Shown here: in pieces, positions 57,395 to 62,661 of the stretch
Layout: every line of letters starts with the position of its first letter
How positions within the stretch are numbered: the stretch's first letter is position 1
Assembly: GCA_040218735.1 (NCBI GenBank)
Contig: JAVJQW010000050.1
Span: 288,001 to 352,000 of the forward strand
Length of the DNA: 64,000 nucleotides
Direction: 5' to 3'
Origin: Deltaproteobacteria bacterium
GTDB taxonomy: Bacteria > Myxococcota > Kuafuiibacteriia > Kuafuiibacteriales > Kuafuiibacteriaceae
The notes under the pieces: model-generated
The model's database searches: none
What the model was told of the DNA's origin: nothing
What the model saw: the letters and a program-made list of their open reading frames with translations, nothing else
Position numbers and translations under genes: made by a program

Positions 57395-58258
57395 TCAATT
57401 GGTCTTCGGACGGACGCCGAGCTGGACGAGCCCCTCGTTGAGGCGGCCGGTGCGAAAGCCTTCGAGATCCAGCGTCACGAAGCCAAATCCCGCCGCTTGG
57501 GCGTCCGCGACGATCCGCGCGCGATGTCGGACGACCCCCTCGATCTCCGCCTCGCCGACCTCGATCCGCACCATATCGTCGTTGTCGCGGACCAGGCGGG
57601 CGCGGACGTCGAAGAAGCCCAGCTCCCGCAGGCACACCTCGACCCGCTCCACCCGGCCCAGACGCTCCTCGGTCACCGCCACGCCGTACGGGAGGCGGCT
57701 CGAGAGGCACGCGAGCTGCGGCTTGTCCCAAGTCGGCAGGCCGAGCCGCTTCGACAGCGCGCGGATCTCCGCCTTCGACAGGCCCACTTCGGCGAGCGGG
57801 TGCCGGACGTCGTGCTCCGCGGCCGCCCGGTGCCCCGGGCGAAAGTCCGCGAGGTCGTCCGTGTTGAAGCCGTCGACGACGACGGCGCCCTCGAACGTCT
57901 CGGCCGCGAGCTGGGTCGTGTCGAACAGCTCCGTCTTGCAGTAGTAGCAGCGCGACGTCTCGTTCTTCACGTAGTCCGGACGGTCGAGCTCGTGCGTCGT
58001 GACCACGCGGTGCTCGATCCCGATCGCGACGGCGAGCGCCTTCGCGTCCTCCAGCTCGACCTGCATCAACGACGGCGAGCGCGCCGTCAGCGCTATCGCC
58101 CGCTCACCCAGCGCATCGCAGGCGACCCGTGCGAGGAACGCGGAGTCCACACCGCCCGAGTAGGCGACGACCACGCGACCGTACGAGCGGAGCAGCTCGA
58201 CGAGCGCGCGGTGTTTGGCCTCGACCGCGTCCGAAAGCGTGGCGACGTCCACCGACAT
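57395..58258 (-). CDS. larE: LarE-like ATP-dependent sulfur transferase (PP-loop)
   Basis: SGGVDS, RCYYCK, DFRPG, WDKPQLACLSSR.PYG, GFRTG.LN. Confidence 0.9.
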   Translation of the reverse strand: MSVDVATLSDAVEAKHRALVELLRSYGRVVVAYSGGVDSAFLARVACDALGERAIALTARSPSLMQVELEDAKALAVAIGIEHRVVTTHELDRPDYVKNETSRCYYCKTELFDTTQLAAETFEGAVVVDGFNTDDLADFRPGHRAAAEHDVRHPLAEVGLSKAEIRALSKRLGLPTWDKPQLACLSSRLPYGVAVTEERLGRVERVEVCLRELGFFDVRARLVRDNDDMVRIEVGEAEIEGVVRHRARIVADAQAAGFGFVTLDLEGFRTGRLNEGLVQLGVRPKTN

Positions 58259-58270
58259 CGTGCGTTTCGT

Positions 58271-59326
58271 CTACACGATGCGGTGCGCGCTGGCACCCGC
58301 GGATTCACGCACGATCGGCCGCAGCATCGGCCCCGCGATCGCGCGAATCGCACGCGCGGCGTGTTGGTAGGTCGCGTCGAGCCCCGAGGCGGCCGTCGCG
58401 TCGGCGAGCGCTCCGGCCACCGCCTTCAGGTCCCGCGGGCGGTCCTGAGGCCGCGTCGCGAACAGCGGCGTGAGCACCTCCCCGAGGCGCCCGAGGTTCG
58501 AGTGCGGCGCGAGGAGACGGCGCGCGAGGACGCCGACCGCGTACGCGTCCGCGGCCAGCGAGGGCAACAACCCGTAGCGACGCTCGGGCGCGAGGAACGG
58601 ATCGAGCAGCGGTTCCGAGAGGTCGACGTCGGGCCCCGGCGACCACAACCGAACCGAGCCATCGAGCCCGAGGTGCAGCCGGCGGGGCTCGATGGCCCCG
58701 TGGGGACCGCGGCGGGCGTGGTGCTGCGCCACCCCCTCCGCGAGGTGACAGGCCAGGACCGCGGACACCTCCGCCGGCACCGTGAGGAGCCCGGCTTCGA
58801 GCGCGTCGAAGAGCGCGGTGGCGGGGATCTGAGGCCCTTCGGATTCCACGACCGCGATACGGCCATCGAAGAGCTCCAGCCCGTCATCGACGCTCCGCGG
58901 CTCGCGCCGGACGGTGATCCAACGCTCGTCCGCGAGGCGGAACGCCCGCACCGTCCTATCGGGCGTCGCGTGCTCGTGAGCGACGCGTGCGCCGTCGACC
59001 TGCGCACCGACCAGGCTCGGCCAATCGGGGTCCGCCAGGCTGAACGACAAACGAAGATCGTTGAGGCGCAACACCTCGTCCGGCGCCACGGTGATCGGCG
59101 CGCGGACGCGTTCGTCTTCTCGCGCGAGCCCGGCGCGCCCACGCCCGAGGTCCGTCACGAGGATGCGCCCGCGGCGCACCAGGACATGCACGTGGCGCTC
59201 GGCGAGTCGGTCGTCGTCGATGGTGAGGTCGGCGCGCGGTCCCCGCCCGAGGAAGAGGTCCGGCCCCGGGCGCTCGTGAACCTCCACGCGCCCGCGGCGC
59301 GCCACGACGAACCGCACCGAGGCCAT
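58271..59326 (-). CDS. Degenerate FHA + pseudokinase protein
   Basis: LGRG..D.RLAERH (FHA, Ser lost); HGAIEP, LAPE, DAYAVG, RP kinase C-lobe remnants without HRD/DFG. Confidence 0.65.
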   Translation of the reverse strand: MASVRFVVARRGRVEVHERPGPDLFLGRGPRADLTIDDDRLAERHVHVLVRRGRILVTDLGRGRAGLAREDERVRAPITVAPDEVLRLNDLRLSFSLADPDWPSLVGAQVDGARVAHEHATPDRTVRAFRLADERWITVRREPRSVDDGLELFDGRIAVVESEGPQIPATALFDALEAGLLTVPAEVSAVLACHLAEGVAQHHARRGPHGAIEPRRLHLGLDGSVRLWSPGPDVDLSEPLLDPFLAPERRYGLLPSLAADAYAVGVLARRLLAPHSNLGRLGEVLTPLFATRPQDRPRDLKAVAGALADATAASGLDATYQHAARAIRAIAGPMLRPIVRESAGASAHRIV

Positions 59327-59398
59327 GCCCGGACGATGGTACTCGCGACGCATGGTGTGCGGCCAGGCCTGCAAGCGCAGCGCCGGTCAGGCCGCCTC

Positions 59399-60625
59399 TC
59401 AGGGCCAGGGCTCGACTTCGAGGCTGTCCGCGACGAGCCGGCGGAGCGTGCCGTCCTCCGTCAACACGTGCGTCGCACCCTGGTTCTGCGCCATCGCAGC
59501 GAAGAGCCACGGAGAACGCTCCGTCGCCACGAGGGGAGCCTGATCGACCCCCGCGATGGGCTCCGGAGCCAGCACGAGATCGAAGGAAGAGAGGTCATGC
59601 CCCTCGGCGTCGGCCGCCTTGGCGACCGCCAGCACCCGCTTCGCCCCCGCGCGCAGGACACGCGCACGGGACTCCGCAGCGAGCTCTTCGCCGCCGACCA
59701 CGAAGACCGGGCCGCCGATGATGCGGCGTTGGTTCTGCGCGTACAGGTCACCGACCGCCATGTAGGCGAGCGCCTGGCCGTCCGCGACGAGGCGGACGAT
59801 CGCGCCGGGCTCGAGCCCACCGTCGACGAGCTGGCGCTCGTGGACGTCGAGCACGATCGGCACGCGCCACGGCGTCCCCGCGGGGAGTCGACCCAGGTCC
59901 TGTACGGAGCGAACCTCGGCGCGGCGCATGAAACCCGCGAGGGGCGAGTACAGGCCGCCTGCGAAGCACCGCAGGTCCTCGCGGACCTGGCGCTCCTCGA
60001 TCTCGATCGTGCGCGACTCCGCGAGGGCGTCGAGGCGCTCGGCTTCGGGGGCGTCGATCCGGCGGGGCGCCAACGCACCGGACACCGGGCGCAGCGGGCG
60101 CGCCGCCTCCTTGCCTTCCATCGTTCGGAGCGAGAGGTCGGGCAGCTGCGTCTTCGCCTCCCCGAGGCGACGCTCCACGAAGCGCTTCGCCTCCGCGTCG
60201 TACTGGTACGCCGCGAGGTCCGCGTAGACGCCCTCGCGGACGGACACGACCACGTACACGACGCCCGGCGTGAGCTCGATGCCCTCCTGCACGGCCATCG
60301 CGCGATCCTCCGGCGAGAAGTACGCGCCGGCGTCGCAGTGGGAGTGATAGATGATGCGCTCGTCGAGGCCGGCCTCGCTCGCCTCGTCGAGGACACGCAT
60401 CCGCTCCAGGTCGTTCATGCGGAACGCGTCGCGCCCCGTGCGCGGGAACGCCTCCGGATCCCGTGCGTGATACTTGTCCTGCACGTTCTCCATCGGGACG
60501 ACGCGCGTCAGCTTCGGCCCGTTGCCGAGCACGACGCCGCACGCCTCGACGGGATAGTCGCGGACCGCGTGCGCCTTCAGCGCCTCGACGATCGGATCCG
60601 TGAGCTCGAGCCCGAAGACCTTCAC
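59399..60625 (-). CDS. JAMM/Mov34 (Mec-like) metalloprotease fused to an ATP-sulfurylase PUA-like domain
   Basis: YPVEACG, YHSHCDAGAYFSPED; then GLYSPLAGFM..RLPAGTPWRVPIVLDV; no QxRN or HxGH motifs. Confidence 0.85.
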   Translation of the reverse strand: MKVFGLELTDPIVEALKAHAVRDYPVEACGVVLGNGPKLTRVVPMENVQDKYHARDPEAFPRTGRDAFRMNDLERMRVLDEASEAGLDERIIYHSHCDAGAYFSPEDRAMAVQEGIELTPGVVYVVVSVREGVYADLAAYQYDAEAKRFVERRLGEAKTQLPDLSLRTMEGKEAARPLRPVSGALAPRRIDAPEAERLDALAESRTIEIEERQVREDLRCFAGGLYSPLAGFMRRAEVRSVQDLGRLPAGTPWRVPIVLDVHERQLVDGGLEPGAIVRLVADGQALAYMAVGDLYAQNQRRIIGGPVFVVGGEELAAESRARVLRAGAKRVLAVAKAADAEGHDLSSFDLVLAPEPIAGVDQAPLVATERSPWLFAAMAQNQGATHVLTEDGTLRRLVADSLEVEPWP

Positions 60626-61545
60626 GACTCGCGGACCTCCACGTATCGCGACGCGTGGTCGGGCAGGACCGCCACCACGACCGGCTTCTTGCCGGCGGCG
60701 AGCGCCTCCTCGGCGATCGTCTTCGCGGCGTGAACCACGGCGCCCGCCGAGTGCCCGACGAGCAGGCCTTCGTCGCGGACGAGCGCCTCGGCGCTGTCCC
60801 AGCCCGCGTCCGTCGGGCAGAAGAAGGTCCGCGTCAGCACGGAGCGATCGTAGATCCCCGGGCGGATCGATGTCTCGATGTACTTGAGGCCTTCGAGCCC
60901 GTGGAACTCGTCGTCCGGCTCCACGCCGATGACCTCGATGTCGTCCCGAAAGGCGCGAAGCCGACGCCCCGTGCCCATGACGGTGCCGCTCGTCCCGATG
61001 CCCGCGACGAAGTGCGTGATGCGATCGCCGAGGGCCTCGATGATCTCCTCCGCCGTCCCGTCGTGGTGCGCACGCCAGTTCGCCTCGTTGTTGTACTGGT
61101 TCGTGTAGAAGTAGCGCCCGGGCTGCTCCTCCACGATCTTGCGCACGAGCTCGATCGCGCCGTCGGAGCCGTCCATCGGATCGCTGTAGATGATCTTCGC
61201 GCCGAACGTGCTCAGCATGCTCTTGCGCGCCGACGACACGTTCTCGGGCATCACCAGCGTGACTTCGTACCCGCGCGCCGCACCGTACAGCGCGAGCGCC
61301 ACGCCCGTGTTGCCGCTCGTGGAGTCGATGATCGACATCCCGGGCCGCAGCTCACCGGACTTCTCTGCGGCCTGGATCAGGTTCAACGCCGGGCGGTCCT
61401 TCACGCTGCCGCCCGGGTTCAAGAACTCGAGCTTCGCCCAAACCTCGGCGCCTTCGGGCTCGACCGAACGGAGCCGGGCCATCGGCGTACGACCGACGGC
61501 CTCGGCGATCGACCCGACGGTCCGGGCCCGCGATGGTGCGCTCAC
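60622..61545 (-). CDS. cysM: PLP-dependent cysteine synthase (CysM-type)
   Basis: AKLE.LNPGGSVKDR, TSGNTG, QYNN, GIGTSGT, EGLLVGHSAG. Confidence 0.9.
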   Translation of the reverse strand: MSAPSRARTVGSIAEAVGRTPMARLRSVEPEGAEVWAKLEFLNPGGSVKDRPALNLIQAAEKSGELRPGMSIIDSTSGNTGVALALYGAARGYEVTLVMPENVSSARKSMLSTFGAKIIYSDPMDGSDGAIELVRKIVEEQPGRYFYTNQYNNEANWRAHHDGTAEEIIEALGDRITHFVAGIGTSGTVMGTGRRLRAFRDDIEVIGVEPDDEFHGLEGLKYIETSIRPGIYDRSVLTRTFFCPTDAGWDSAEALVRDEGLLVGHSAGAVVHAAKTIAEEALAAGKKPVVVAVLPDHASRYVEVRES

Positions 61546-61820
61546 CTGCCGCCCGCGATCGCCGGAACGATGCTGACCTCCGTGCCGTCCTCGACCTTGG
61601 TGTCGACGTTGTCGAGGAACCGGATGTCCTCGTCCTTGTAGTAGACGTTCACGAAGCGCTTGGGCGCGCCGTTCTCGTCGCAGATGCGCTCGCCGATGCC
61701 GGGGTGCGCCGCGGTCAGGCTCGCGAGGACGGCCTTGATCGTCTCGCCCTGCACTTCGACCTTGTCATGCCCCTCCGTGAACTTCCTGAGGGGCGTCGGA
61801 ATTCGAACCGTGATTGCCAT
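61542..61820 (-). CDS. MoaD/ThiS/CysO-like ubiquitin-fold sulfur carrier
   Basis: VRIPTPLR, RFVNVY..DEDIRFL, IVPAIAGG-R-stop. Confidence 0.93.
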   Translation of the reverse strand: MAITVRIPTPLRKFTEGHDKVEVQGETIKAVLASLTAAHPGIGERICDENGAPKRFVNVYYKDEDIRFLDNVDTKVEDGTEVSIVPAIAGGR

Positions 61821-62661
61821 GATGTTCTCGAGAACCTCCAAATTTTCGATCGACTGAGAAGTAGCGGTCTCCCGCGTCCACGACGATGCTGATGACGCGT
61901 GCGCCCTCGCTCGCCTCGTCCCGCGCTACACGTGCTGCAGCAGCGGAACCCATCCCGACCAGGATCCCTTCCTTGCGCGCGAGCTCGATGCGCGTTTCGT
62001 AGGCCTCGGGATCGAGCACACACACCACGCGGGTCGCGCCCTTGGGCGCCGACGACCCGCGCACCACGCCGTCCTGCACCGAGACCTCCGCCTGCTCGCA
62101 CCGCACCGTTCCGACGGTCTCCACCGGCCGGCCCGCGGCGACGAACGCGTCCGCGACACCGAACAGCAGCTCACCACCGTTGAGCGGCGAGACGAGCACG
62201 GTCTTTTCGCCGTCGTCGTCGATCATCTCGACGAGCTCCGCACCGAGCGAGGATGAAAACGCCGCGCGCGCGAGCTCGGGCTTCTTCGGCGACACCAGGA
62301 GCGTCCCTTCGATCGTCGACGCGACCGCGTGGGTCTTCTCCAGCTCACCGGGCACCCGCACGACCTCGACCGCGTACCGCCCGAGCAGATCCAGGTGCTC
62401 CGGCAACGTCTTGTCCGGGACCACGACCGTGAGCTTCTTCTTCAACGGCGCAGCCGCCGCCGCAAACGCGAGCGCAGGACTCCCGCTCGCCGCGATGACG
62501 ACACGATCGTCGTCGCACGCGGCCAAAAGCGGACCGGCGATCCGATCGTACGCGCTACCGGACGGGAGCATCATCTCGACCTTCGCGTACAGTGCTGTTC
62601 CCGGCGCGAAACGTTGAAGACGCACGAGCGGCGTCCCGAAGCTGGTCGAGATGAATGACAC
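61765..62661 (-). CDS. Cysteine-synthase-fold protein lacking the PLP lysine
   Basis: GTPLVRL, AKVE..LPSGSAYDR (Tyr at the Lys position), EGILVG, DAGDRYFS. Confidence 0.8.
   Translation of the reverse strand: MSFISTSFGTPLVRLQRFAPGTALYAKVEMMLPSGSAYDRIAGPLLAACDDDRVVIAASGSPALAFAAAAAPLKKKLTVVVPDKTLPEHLDLLGRYAVEVVRVPGELEKTHAVASTIEGTLLVSPKKPELARAAFSSSLGAELVEMIDDDGEKTVLVSPLNGGELLFGVADAFVAAGRPVETVGTVRCEQAEVSVQDGVVRGSSAPKGATRVVCVLDPEAYETRIELARKEGILVGMGSAAAARVARDEASEGARVISIVVDAGDRYFSVDRKFGGSREHHGNHGSNSDAPQEVHGGA

Follow-up and report, generated by a model that had tools for sequence, protein, structure and literature searches.

The window analysed here is a stretch of 64,000 nucleotides from a Deltaproteobacteria bacterium of the family Kuafuiibacteriaceae (Myxococcota), positions 288,001 to 352,000 of contig JAVJQW010000050.1 in assembly GCA_040218735.1. 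At 59399..60625 on the minus strand (coordinates including the stop codon), the list of open reading frames (ORFs) contains a gene with a GTG start codon, that encodes a protein of 408 amino acids in which Pfam recognizes a JAMM metallopeptidase joined to a module resembling ATP sulfurylase (Sat). The JAMM/MPN+ domain comprises residues 1-155 (60161..60625, minus strand), as delimited by the Prok-JAB match and by structural superposition. It is followed by a linker of residues 156-176 (60098..60160, minus strand), placed by alignment and by its predicted local distance difference test values (pLDDT, 72/69/74 in blocks); model confidence is lower there, and the linker presents a conserved LPDLxLRxME stretch with P162 and R167 invariant. 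The Sat-like part consists of an N lobe of PUA_2 type, residues 177-301 (59723..60097, minus strand; Pfam, hhalign and VIA), and of a C lobe, residues 302-408 (59402..59722, minus strand; hhalign, HMMER and VIA), which is a shrunken remnant of the catalytic domain.

The Pfam scan of the fusion protein showed a Prok-JAB domain (PF14464) at residues 11-129, with an E-value of 1.8e-16 and a score of 60.5 bits (cut-off 25), and a PUA_2 domain at residues 179-301, with an E-value of 4.5e-20 and a score of 72.3 bits (cut-off 27). The latter match covers model positions 2-123 of 159, the final ~36 positions being missing. Nothing beyond these two domains, and no ATP-sulfurylase domain (PF01747), was found at E ≤ 1. 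The JAMM motif is complete (E27 ... H94-S95-H96-x7-S104-x2-D107), and its catalytic residues show no substitution in any of the 26 aligned members of the family, nor in any of the 8 fusion loci. In the structural model, the JAMM part (residues ~3-155) superposes on Pyrococcus furiosus JAMM1 (PfJAMM1, 5ld9_A) with a VIA Z-score of 17.7 and a root-mean-square deviation (rmsd) of 1.8 over 127 aligned residues, and it presents the MPN fold by this comparison. The N-terminal 155 residues, whose active-site positions are intact, are predicted to be an active JAMM zinc peptidase.

We then compared the second part of the protein with Sat. The NCBIfam Sat models match residues 180-301 only, i.e. about positions 2-126 of ~390, and the scores of 41-67 bits fall well short of the 323-669 that the families require (54.9 bits compared to 322.95 for TIGR00339, and 67.4 compared to 387 for NF003166). 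A reference set of 14 canonical myxobacterial Sats, all with the Q[TS]RN and GRD[HP]AG motifs, was assembled from 21 loci examined. Global profile-profile alignment of family residues 170-408 to this set with hhalign gave a probability of 99.8 and an E-value of 2.4e-29 over 236 collinear columns, with five deletions, and stopped at Sat position 335 of 430. In this alignment the position of the Sat motif VVAFQTRNPxHRAH is occupied by RVLAV and that of VGRDHAG by TED, FDLVL is placed at the Sat strand LLIHPVVG, and the segment PWLFAAMAQNQGATHVL pairs with a 21-letter Sat segment. QTRNPxHxxH and GRDHAG are thus missing from the module, together with a number of internal stretches and ~90 residues at the C-terminal end of Sat; in all, ~160 residues and every recognizable catalytic motif have been lost. 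The C lobe retains the stretches xRAxLLRxGAxRVLAV and PWLxAAMAQNQGATH.

In the same way, a profile of the 26-member family searched with HMMER against the sequences of the PDB matched the Sat 8a8d (E-value 5.7e-21) and 3cr8 (E-value 6e-20). The alignment to 3cr8 extends into the C lobe, with aelRAellrrgakrvlav against AELRALFVRRGWRRIIAWQARQ, and a collinear piece below the threshold, in the comparison with 8a8d/3cr8, pairs ldAvmaqNqGAThilved with HHAIMRKNFGCTHFIVGR. The AlphaFold2 model built from the 26-member alignment is confident and compact, with a mean pLDDT of 90.8 and a predicted template modelling score of 0.79, and the top solved structure found with Foldseek is 3cr8 (E-value 1.8e-14). 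Residues 177-408 superpose in VIA-align on residues 2-315 of 8a8d_A with a Z-score of 21.5 and an rmsd of 2.5 over 228 aligned residues, while 3cr8 (20.7) and yeast, fungal and bacterial Sats are tied at Z-scores of 19.6-20.7. The module therefore has the two-lobed fold of Sat and its N-terminal PUA_2 domain and is devoid of the active-site motifs, and as these are the defining catalytic features of Sat, it counts as a sulfurylase-like domain, not as a true sulfurylase.

A first-pass annotation of this DNA, made from the letters alone, had described the gene product as a JAMM protease with an intact motif, followed by a Sat N-terminal PUA-like domain and by shrunken remnants of the catalytic domain without QxRN or HxxH. 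These statements are borne out by the Pfam, NCBIfam, hhalign and VIA results, and the strings it quoted (GLYSPLAGFM, RLPAGTPWRVPIVLDV and AAMAQNQGATH) are all present in the translation. It had also singled out the PUA domain as the part with a function. The PUA-like domain is indeed retained, yet not alone, and the conserved unit is the whole two-lobed Sat-like module of 232 residues.

The possibility that such a junction was produced by assembly was examined on several sides. Of 50 homologues retrieved at E ≤ 0.001, 47 (389-459 amino acids) align over 95% or more of the query and 46 carry both Pfam domains; those that are named come from Myxococcota or 'Deltaproteobacteria' metagenome-assembled genomes under the database name 'Mov34/MPN/PAD-1 family protein', and some are labelled '[CysO sulfur-carrier protein]-S-L-cysteine hydrolase' by JGI, which is an automatic name. 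An independent contig of 54,099 bases from a sponge metagenome covers positions 59000-61000 of the window unbroken, with 24 letter differences and no insertion or deletion, and pieces from two further studies also bridge the domain junction. Considering the full-length homologues, the occurrence in 10 of 20 genomes of the family and the independent contig across it, the junction is no assembly artefact. The fusion is therefore not peculiar to this assembly, the case that the first-pass annotation had named as fatal to its proposal, and the PUA_2 match, whose lack of significance it had named as the other such case, is significant. In the range of 224-714 amino acids no homologue exceeded 459 amino acids, and no longer form (715-2040 amino acids, e.g. 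JAB with an intact Sat and CysC) was found, the latter null result being weak evidence.

The fusion is restricted to one lineage. A sample of 401 genomes of the phylum comprised 20 of the window's own family and 381 of other families. The full-length Sat-like module was present in 10 of the 401, all of the own family (the genome of the window and 9 of the 19 others), and in none of the 381 sampled genomes of other Myxococcota families; 38 further genomes matched only through the PUA_2 part of ordinary Sat. In the own family an orthologue of the JAB domain occurs in 13 of 20 genomes, fused in 10 and stand-alone in 3, and the fusion members of the 10 genomes span 37-100% identity. In species-representative genomes we found 15 loci, 8 with the full fusion and 7 with the stand-alone JAB only.

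The module alone, searched against 1.84 billion representatives, gave 559 matches at E ≤ 0.001 and 18 at E ≤ 1e-10. Fourteen of these 18 have the length of the fusion (390-438 amino acids), and among the four others P0058 and P0060 are fragments on contigs of ~1.1-1.3 kb. Stand-alone proteins of 238-243 amino acids (P0068, P0102 and P0115; also P0195-P0200) exhibit the same shortened Sat-like layout; they are 29-32% identical to the module and retain PNDLRA, RVLA and ARNxGATHL. A search of the Atlas for such small proteins gave only leads, short PUA_2 proteins in Pseudomonadota and Actinomycetota. The sole locus from the metagenome scan, L055, was rejected as a locus of this kind, as it encodes a full-length Sat-like domain fused to adenosine 5'-phosphosulfate (APS) kinase. 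In this Sat-CysC fusion of 563 amino acids (L055:5989-7680), QTRQPIHRPQ and GHNHAS replace QTRNPxHRAH and GRDHAG, and by these motifs its Sat part looks like another inactive sulfurylase-like domain on an APS kinase, comparable to that of Thiobacillus denitrificans.

The ratio of nonsynonymous to synonymous substitution rates (dN/dS), computed against the closest orthologue (L009, 80% identity), is 0.14 for the JAB domain, 0.28 for the PUA_2 lobe and 0.15 for the remnant lobe, compared to about 1.0 for the 21-codon linker. Over 8 loci, with 37-54% identity, ~45 residues of the module are invariant, including S227-P228-L229, W253, R320-A321, W373, Q380-N381 and G383-A384-T385. The Sat-like module is under purifying selection and is not decaying. 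It could be argued that it is a functionless relic of the fusion on its way to loss, as the extent of the deletions, the disappearance of all catalytic motifs and the stand-alone JAB of three family genomes might suggest. However, the low dN/dS of both lobes, the retention of the full-length module with many invariant residues in 10 genomes of widely differing identity, and the confident, compact model already speak against this explanation, which we consider highly improbable. No better placed is the idea of a new catalytic activity at a rebuilt site. The strong conservation of Q380-N381-x-G-A-T385-H and of R320 would agree with it, as would the stand-alone proteins of ~240 amino acids that share the shortened layout. 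Nevertheless, no new motif was found in the module alignments, and the conserved residues correspond to positions conserved in canonical Sats too (xRxNxGxTH, ELR). Since most of the invariant positions of the module are likewise conserved in true Sats, a role in keeping the fold is suggested for them.

The fusion gene is the fourth of six genes arranged on the same strand, in the order CysK/M paralogue, sulfur carrier, CysM, fusion, FHA protein and LarE. The carrier (61542..61841, minus strand) is a ThiS/MoaD/CysO-like protein, also resembling SAMP1, with a Pfam ThiS E-value of 6.2e-13; the ThiS model ends at residue 98 of 99, the sequence terminates in ...AIAGG-R, and the real start is probably Met8. 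The next gene (60622..61545, minus strand) encodes a CysM-type cysteine synthase of 307 amino acids (PALP E-value 5.6e-63; TIGR01138 cysM E-value 3.7e-93, under the cut-off of that model) with an intact SVKDR lysine motif. Overlaps of 4 nucleotides occur at both junctions, between the carrier and CysM and between the CysM stop and the GTG start of the fusion, which indicates translational coupling of the three genes. There is no E1 gene within this cluster. The genome encodes elsewhere a rhodanese-MoeB protein (562.6 bits, cut-off 449), and also a canonical Sat-CysC with QTRNPMHRAH and GRDHAG (L001:994-2694), which makes the fused Sat copy a spare paralogue.

The first gene of the cluster (61765..62661, minus strand; PALP E-value 1e-31) is a CysK/M paralogue that shares 56-77 nucleotides at its 3' end with the carrier ORF. 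Motif comparison showed SGSAYDR in place of SVKDR, i.e. a tyrosine for the pyridoxal 5'-phosphate (PLP) lysine, and the TSGNTG loop is missing; it is therefore likely, from these motifs, to be a pseudoenzyme. The lysine-less paralogue was also found in the fusion loci L008 and L011 (SGSVYDR / SGSAYDR), and in the stand-alone-JAB loci L014 and L015 the upstream paralogue retains SVKDR and TSGNTG. Downstream, the FHA gene (58271..59374, minus strand) begins 24 nucleotides after the fusion gene and encodes an FHA domain (E-value 6.6e-4) with a kinase-like fold (AlphaFold2 pLDDT 74.5): residues ~123-333 resemble kinase domains, with VIA Z-scores of 15.6 for B-Raf and 14.6 for PknA. As no Pfam Pkinase match was obtained at E ≤ 1 and HGAIEP stands at the kinase HRDxKPxN position, this protein is probably a pseudokinase. 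Its homologues occur in 13 of 20 family genomes, some of them without JAB. The FHA protein was considered as a partner specific for the Sat-like module, an idea weakened by its presence in these genomes and by its position after a stand-alone JAB in G068. RNA run X21 yielded no more than scraps: one piece of 255 bases lies over the FHA gene, pieces of 20-35 bases belong to other contigs, and the two 'joints' reported there have sides of 21-23 letters from unrelated contigs.

The last gene (57395..58258, minus strand) encodes a PP-loop sulfur transferase of the LarE family (TIGR00268, E-value 1e-91, 306.8 bits compared to a cut-off of 150), with CYYCK and ACLSS cysteines that may indicate an Fe-S type LarE. 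A role as a carrier-linked enzyme in a genome without the Lar pathway was rejected, the genome having two LarA-like genes and LarC elsewhere. A second, unrelated cluster of the same genome (L024; contig C24, about 26.9-30.5 kb) contains genes for a 267-residue protein, a 125-residue JAB (HSHPGSG), a 128-residue ORF and a 245-residue E1-like protein, and is reminiscent of bacterial operons for ubiquitin-like conjugation or defence.

The arrangement around the gene was compared among the 15 loci. The JAB gene lies directly after cysM in 5 of the 7 stand-alone loci versus 3 of the 8 fusion loci, and a carrier is present in 4 of 7 and 3 of 8, respectively. A LarE gene lies downstream of the fusion in 7 of 8 cases and of the stand-alone JAB in 1 of 7, and the corresponding numbers for the presence of the FHA protein are 5 of 8 and 0 of 7. 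Fusion and cysM are contiguous in the window, L008, L009, L011 and G040, both carrier and CysM accompany the fusion in the window, L008, L011 and G040, and in L010 the fusion follows ThiS with no cysM between. As the stand-alone orthologous JAB adjoins cysM in most of its loci, the JAB domain can be described as cysM-linked and of Mec type.

The C-termini of the carriers are GGR (window), GGA (L008), GGF (L010) and GG (L011) in fusion loci, and GG, GGR, GG and GGWR in stand-alone loci. In 5 of these 8 carriers (window, L008, L010, L015 and L020) one or two residues, R, A, F, R and WR, follow the Gly-Gly. Some JAMM peptidases trim residues past the Gly-Gly of such carriers. The tails that extend beyond it point to an obligatory C-terminal processing, for which a trimming peptidase is needed.

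Some further features of these loci concern sulfate activation and E1. The stand-alone locus L019 has the order carrier, E1 N-terminal fragment, CysM, JAB, APS kinase and LarE. Its APS kinase (L019:5515-6354; TIGR00455, 159.9 bits compared to a cut-off of 138.7) has an LDGGE motif, the usual one being LDGD, and a Lys-rich tail; this linkage suggests a way in which a sulfurylase-type gene could have become the neighbour of JAB. The E1 fragment is a small ORF after the carrier whose similarity is confined to the first ~60 residues of MoeB/ThiF (RYxRHxxLxExGxxGQ). Such fragments were found in L019 (3713-4093), L010 (4203-4946), L014 (3689-4024), L020 (4661-4981) and L021 (4507-4977), and are absent from the window's cluster.

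The coupling to a carrier with a GG-R tail and to CysM makes it most likely that the peptidase is a Mec-type CysO hydrolase and trimmer. On balance, we lean towards the view that the protein is a Mec-type JAMM hydrolase and trimmer of the neighbouring carrier, to which a dead Sat paralogue is attached as an assembly or docking module; what we infer in it is the substrate, the two reactions of the peptidase and the role of the module as a scaffold. The rhodanese-MoeB protein encoded elsewhere in the genome would act in trans to adenylate and sulfurate the carrier, whose extra C-terminal arginine would be trimmed by the JAMM domain, exposing the Gly-Gly. CysM would join the aminoacrylate derived from O-phosphoserine to the carrier thiocarboxylate, and the JAMM domain would then hydrolyse the carrier-cysteine adduct and free the cysteine, as Mec does. 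The Sat-like module, non-catalytic, would serve to keep the peptidase within an oligomer or in contact with a pathway partner.

Several observations weigh against this proposal. The best NCBIfam match of the JAB domain is the desampylase model, under its cut-off. The module evolves more rapidly than the JAB domain, as family members have an average pairwise identity of 0.40-0.43 in the former and of 0.59 in the latter. In 4 of the 10 fusion genomes (G083, G073, G098 and G063) no carrier or CysM gene is adjacent, and with the window's queries three of the four have no CysO/CysM orthologue anywhere. The carrier search with these queries gave a 51%-identical match on another contig in G073, a weak match of 33% in G083 and none in G098 and G063; the best CysM-like genes of the four genomes are 37-42% identical and located elsewhere, as are their ThiS-family genes, 1-2 in each. 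The JAMM residues are intact in these four fusions, three of which (L013, L017 and L018) lack the ~20-residue insert QDRYHxxDPxxFPRT of the cysM-linked members. An intact JAMM site without CysO/CysM means that CysO-cysteine may not be the substrate, or not the sole substrate, of the family as a whole.

These genomes, together with the fact that the steadiest neighbours of the fusion are LarE and the FHA/kinase-like protein and not CysM, are the ground for considering a general de-conjugating or processing peptidase of one or more ubiquitin-like carriers, not primarily a Mec, whose target would be selected by the Sat-like module. The small number of ThiS-family genes in the four genomes is counted on the same side. 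However, the fusion is contiguous with cysM in the window, L008, L009, L011 and G040 and follows ThiS in L010, and its stand-alone orthologues are linked to cysM. LarE also accompanies a stand-alone JAB (L019), so its linkage may reflect an inherited gene order, and the occurrence of the FHA protein after the stand-alone JAB of G068 equally detracts from it as a mark of the fusion. A general peptidase thus appears unlikely to us, and we return to the Mec-type hydrolase and trimmer.

In the mycobacterial system, as far as the accessible part of the source describes it, a MoeZ-type E1 generates the carrier thiocarboxylate, CysM adds the aminoacrylate and Mec cleaves the carrier-cysteine adduct (PMC3227635). 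Mec (Rv1334-type, of the CysO/CysM/Mec set) and the protein of the window are alike in that the gene of a JAMM peptidase is grouped with those of a ThiS-like carrier and a CysM-type synthase, and the reaction expected of both, in the window by domain and operon context, is the release of cysteine from that adduct. The window protein differs by the additional Sat-like module of 232 residues and by a 30-residue insert (QDKYHARDPEAFPRT...), stand-alone JABs of this kind having ~130-180 amino acids, and its carrier has an extra residue after the GG.

In sulfur-carrier pathways, JAMM peptidases usually consist of a single domain, and this also holds for those that trim carriers, QbsD with QbsE and the archaeal JAMM1 with SAMPs. 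The latter are close to the window protein in the fold match to PfJAMM1. They differ in that the window protein has two modules, and its trimming activity is proposed solely from the GG-R tail of the carrier.

With respect to the Sat-like module, the first-pass annotation had offered oligomerisation, binding of nucleotide or RNA, and sensing of the sulfur status. Our best guess, by analogy, is a role in assembly or docking without catalysis, which agrees with the first of these; RNA binding is without support, and the motifs of the ancestral ligand site are gone. The analogy is with the sulfurylase-like domains (SLDs) of the APS kinases of T. denitrificans (TdAPSK, 3cr8) and Entamoeba histolytica (EhAPSK), which likewise have the Sat fold, have lost catalysis and are fused to an enzyme of sulfur metabolism. 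In the part of the report available, it is proposed that these inactive SLDs stabilise the hexamer or enhance the kinase in trans (bioRxiv 10.64898/2026.04.02.716029). Unlike the module of the window, which has 232 residues, is C-terminal to a JAMM peptidase and belongs to a protein with no kinase domain, they are almost complete, with some 300 residues or more aligned to Sat, and lie N-terminal to the APS kinase. Compared to the canonical Sat part of the genome's own Sat-CysC, the module is collinear over both lobes and 34% identical over the PUA_2 part; it differs by the absence of QTRNPxHRAH, GRDHAG and the C-terminal region, by its five deletions and by scores under every Sat cut-off. A homodimer prediction with two copies of the full protein scored 0.00 in both runs, which counts neither for nor against oligomerisation.

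A link between JAB and sulfate activation has been noted before. In the portion of Iyer, Burroughs and Aravind 2006 that was accessible (PMC1779556), the ThiS-JAB-E1 neighbourhoods of type 4e associate JAB and carrier with ATP sulfurylase and APS kinase genes; the sulfurylase is separate and presumably active there, no fusion being mentioned, whereas in the window it is fused and inactive. The gene order of L019 agrees with this association. These neighbourhoods, and the APS kinase gene that follows the stand-alone JAB in L019, could be taken to favour a ligand sensor, in which the Sat-like module would bind APS, 3'-phosphoadenosine 5'-phosphosulfate (PAPS), sulfate or a nucleotide and gate the peptidase by the sulfur status. 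The module descends from an enzyme that binds nucleotide and sulfate and retains a conserved polar set (E194, R320, D349, Q380, N381 and T385), and in fungal ATP sulfurylase, PAPS is bound by an APS-kinase-like domain that is itself dead. Nevertheless, QTRN, HxxH, GRDHAG and the C-terminal residues are all absent, and with them the ancestral pocket is largely dismantled, which disfavours a sensor and leaves it improbable in our view.

A bolder form of the docking hypothesis, which we regard as quite doubtful, would have the dead module dock the peptidase onto Sat-CysC through a Sat-type subunit interface, or sense APS/PAPS, so that sulfate activation and the protein-thiocarboxylate route of cysteine synthesis would be physically or allosterically linked, and would unite it with the lysine-less CysK and the FHA/pseudokinase in a regulatory assembly made largely of pseudoenzymes. 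The reading towards which we lean remains that of a Mec-type peptidase with a non-catalytic assembly or docking module.

The proteins are already present in databases under generic names, and the pairing of JAMM with a sulfurylase-like domain is restricted to a lineage. The first-pass annotation knew of no described Mec-Sat fusion, and in our literature search, whose coverage excluded subscription journals, a paper on a JAB/JAMM-sulfurylase fusion was not found either. The label 'Mov34/MPN/PAD-1 family protein' can now be corrected to a defined two-module architecture, and the minimal Sat-like fold of 232 residues, which also stands alone in proteins of ~240 amino acids, is defined. This lineage has recruited a sulfate-activating enzyme and pared it down to a permanent appendage of a JAMM peptidase, which provides a compact natural case of pseudoenzyme recruitment beside the inactive SLDs of some APS kinases. 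If the appendage docks or senses, the fusion would offer a rare handle on the coordination between sulfate assimilation and the carrier-based synthesis of cysteine.

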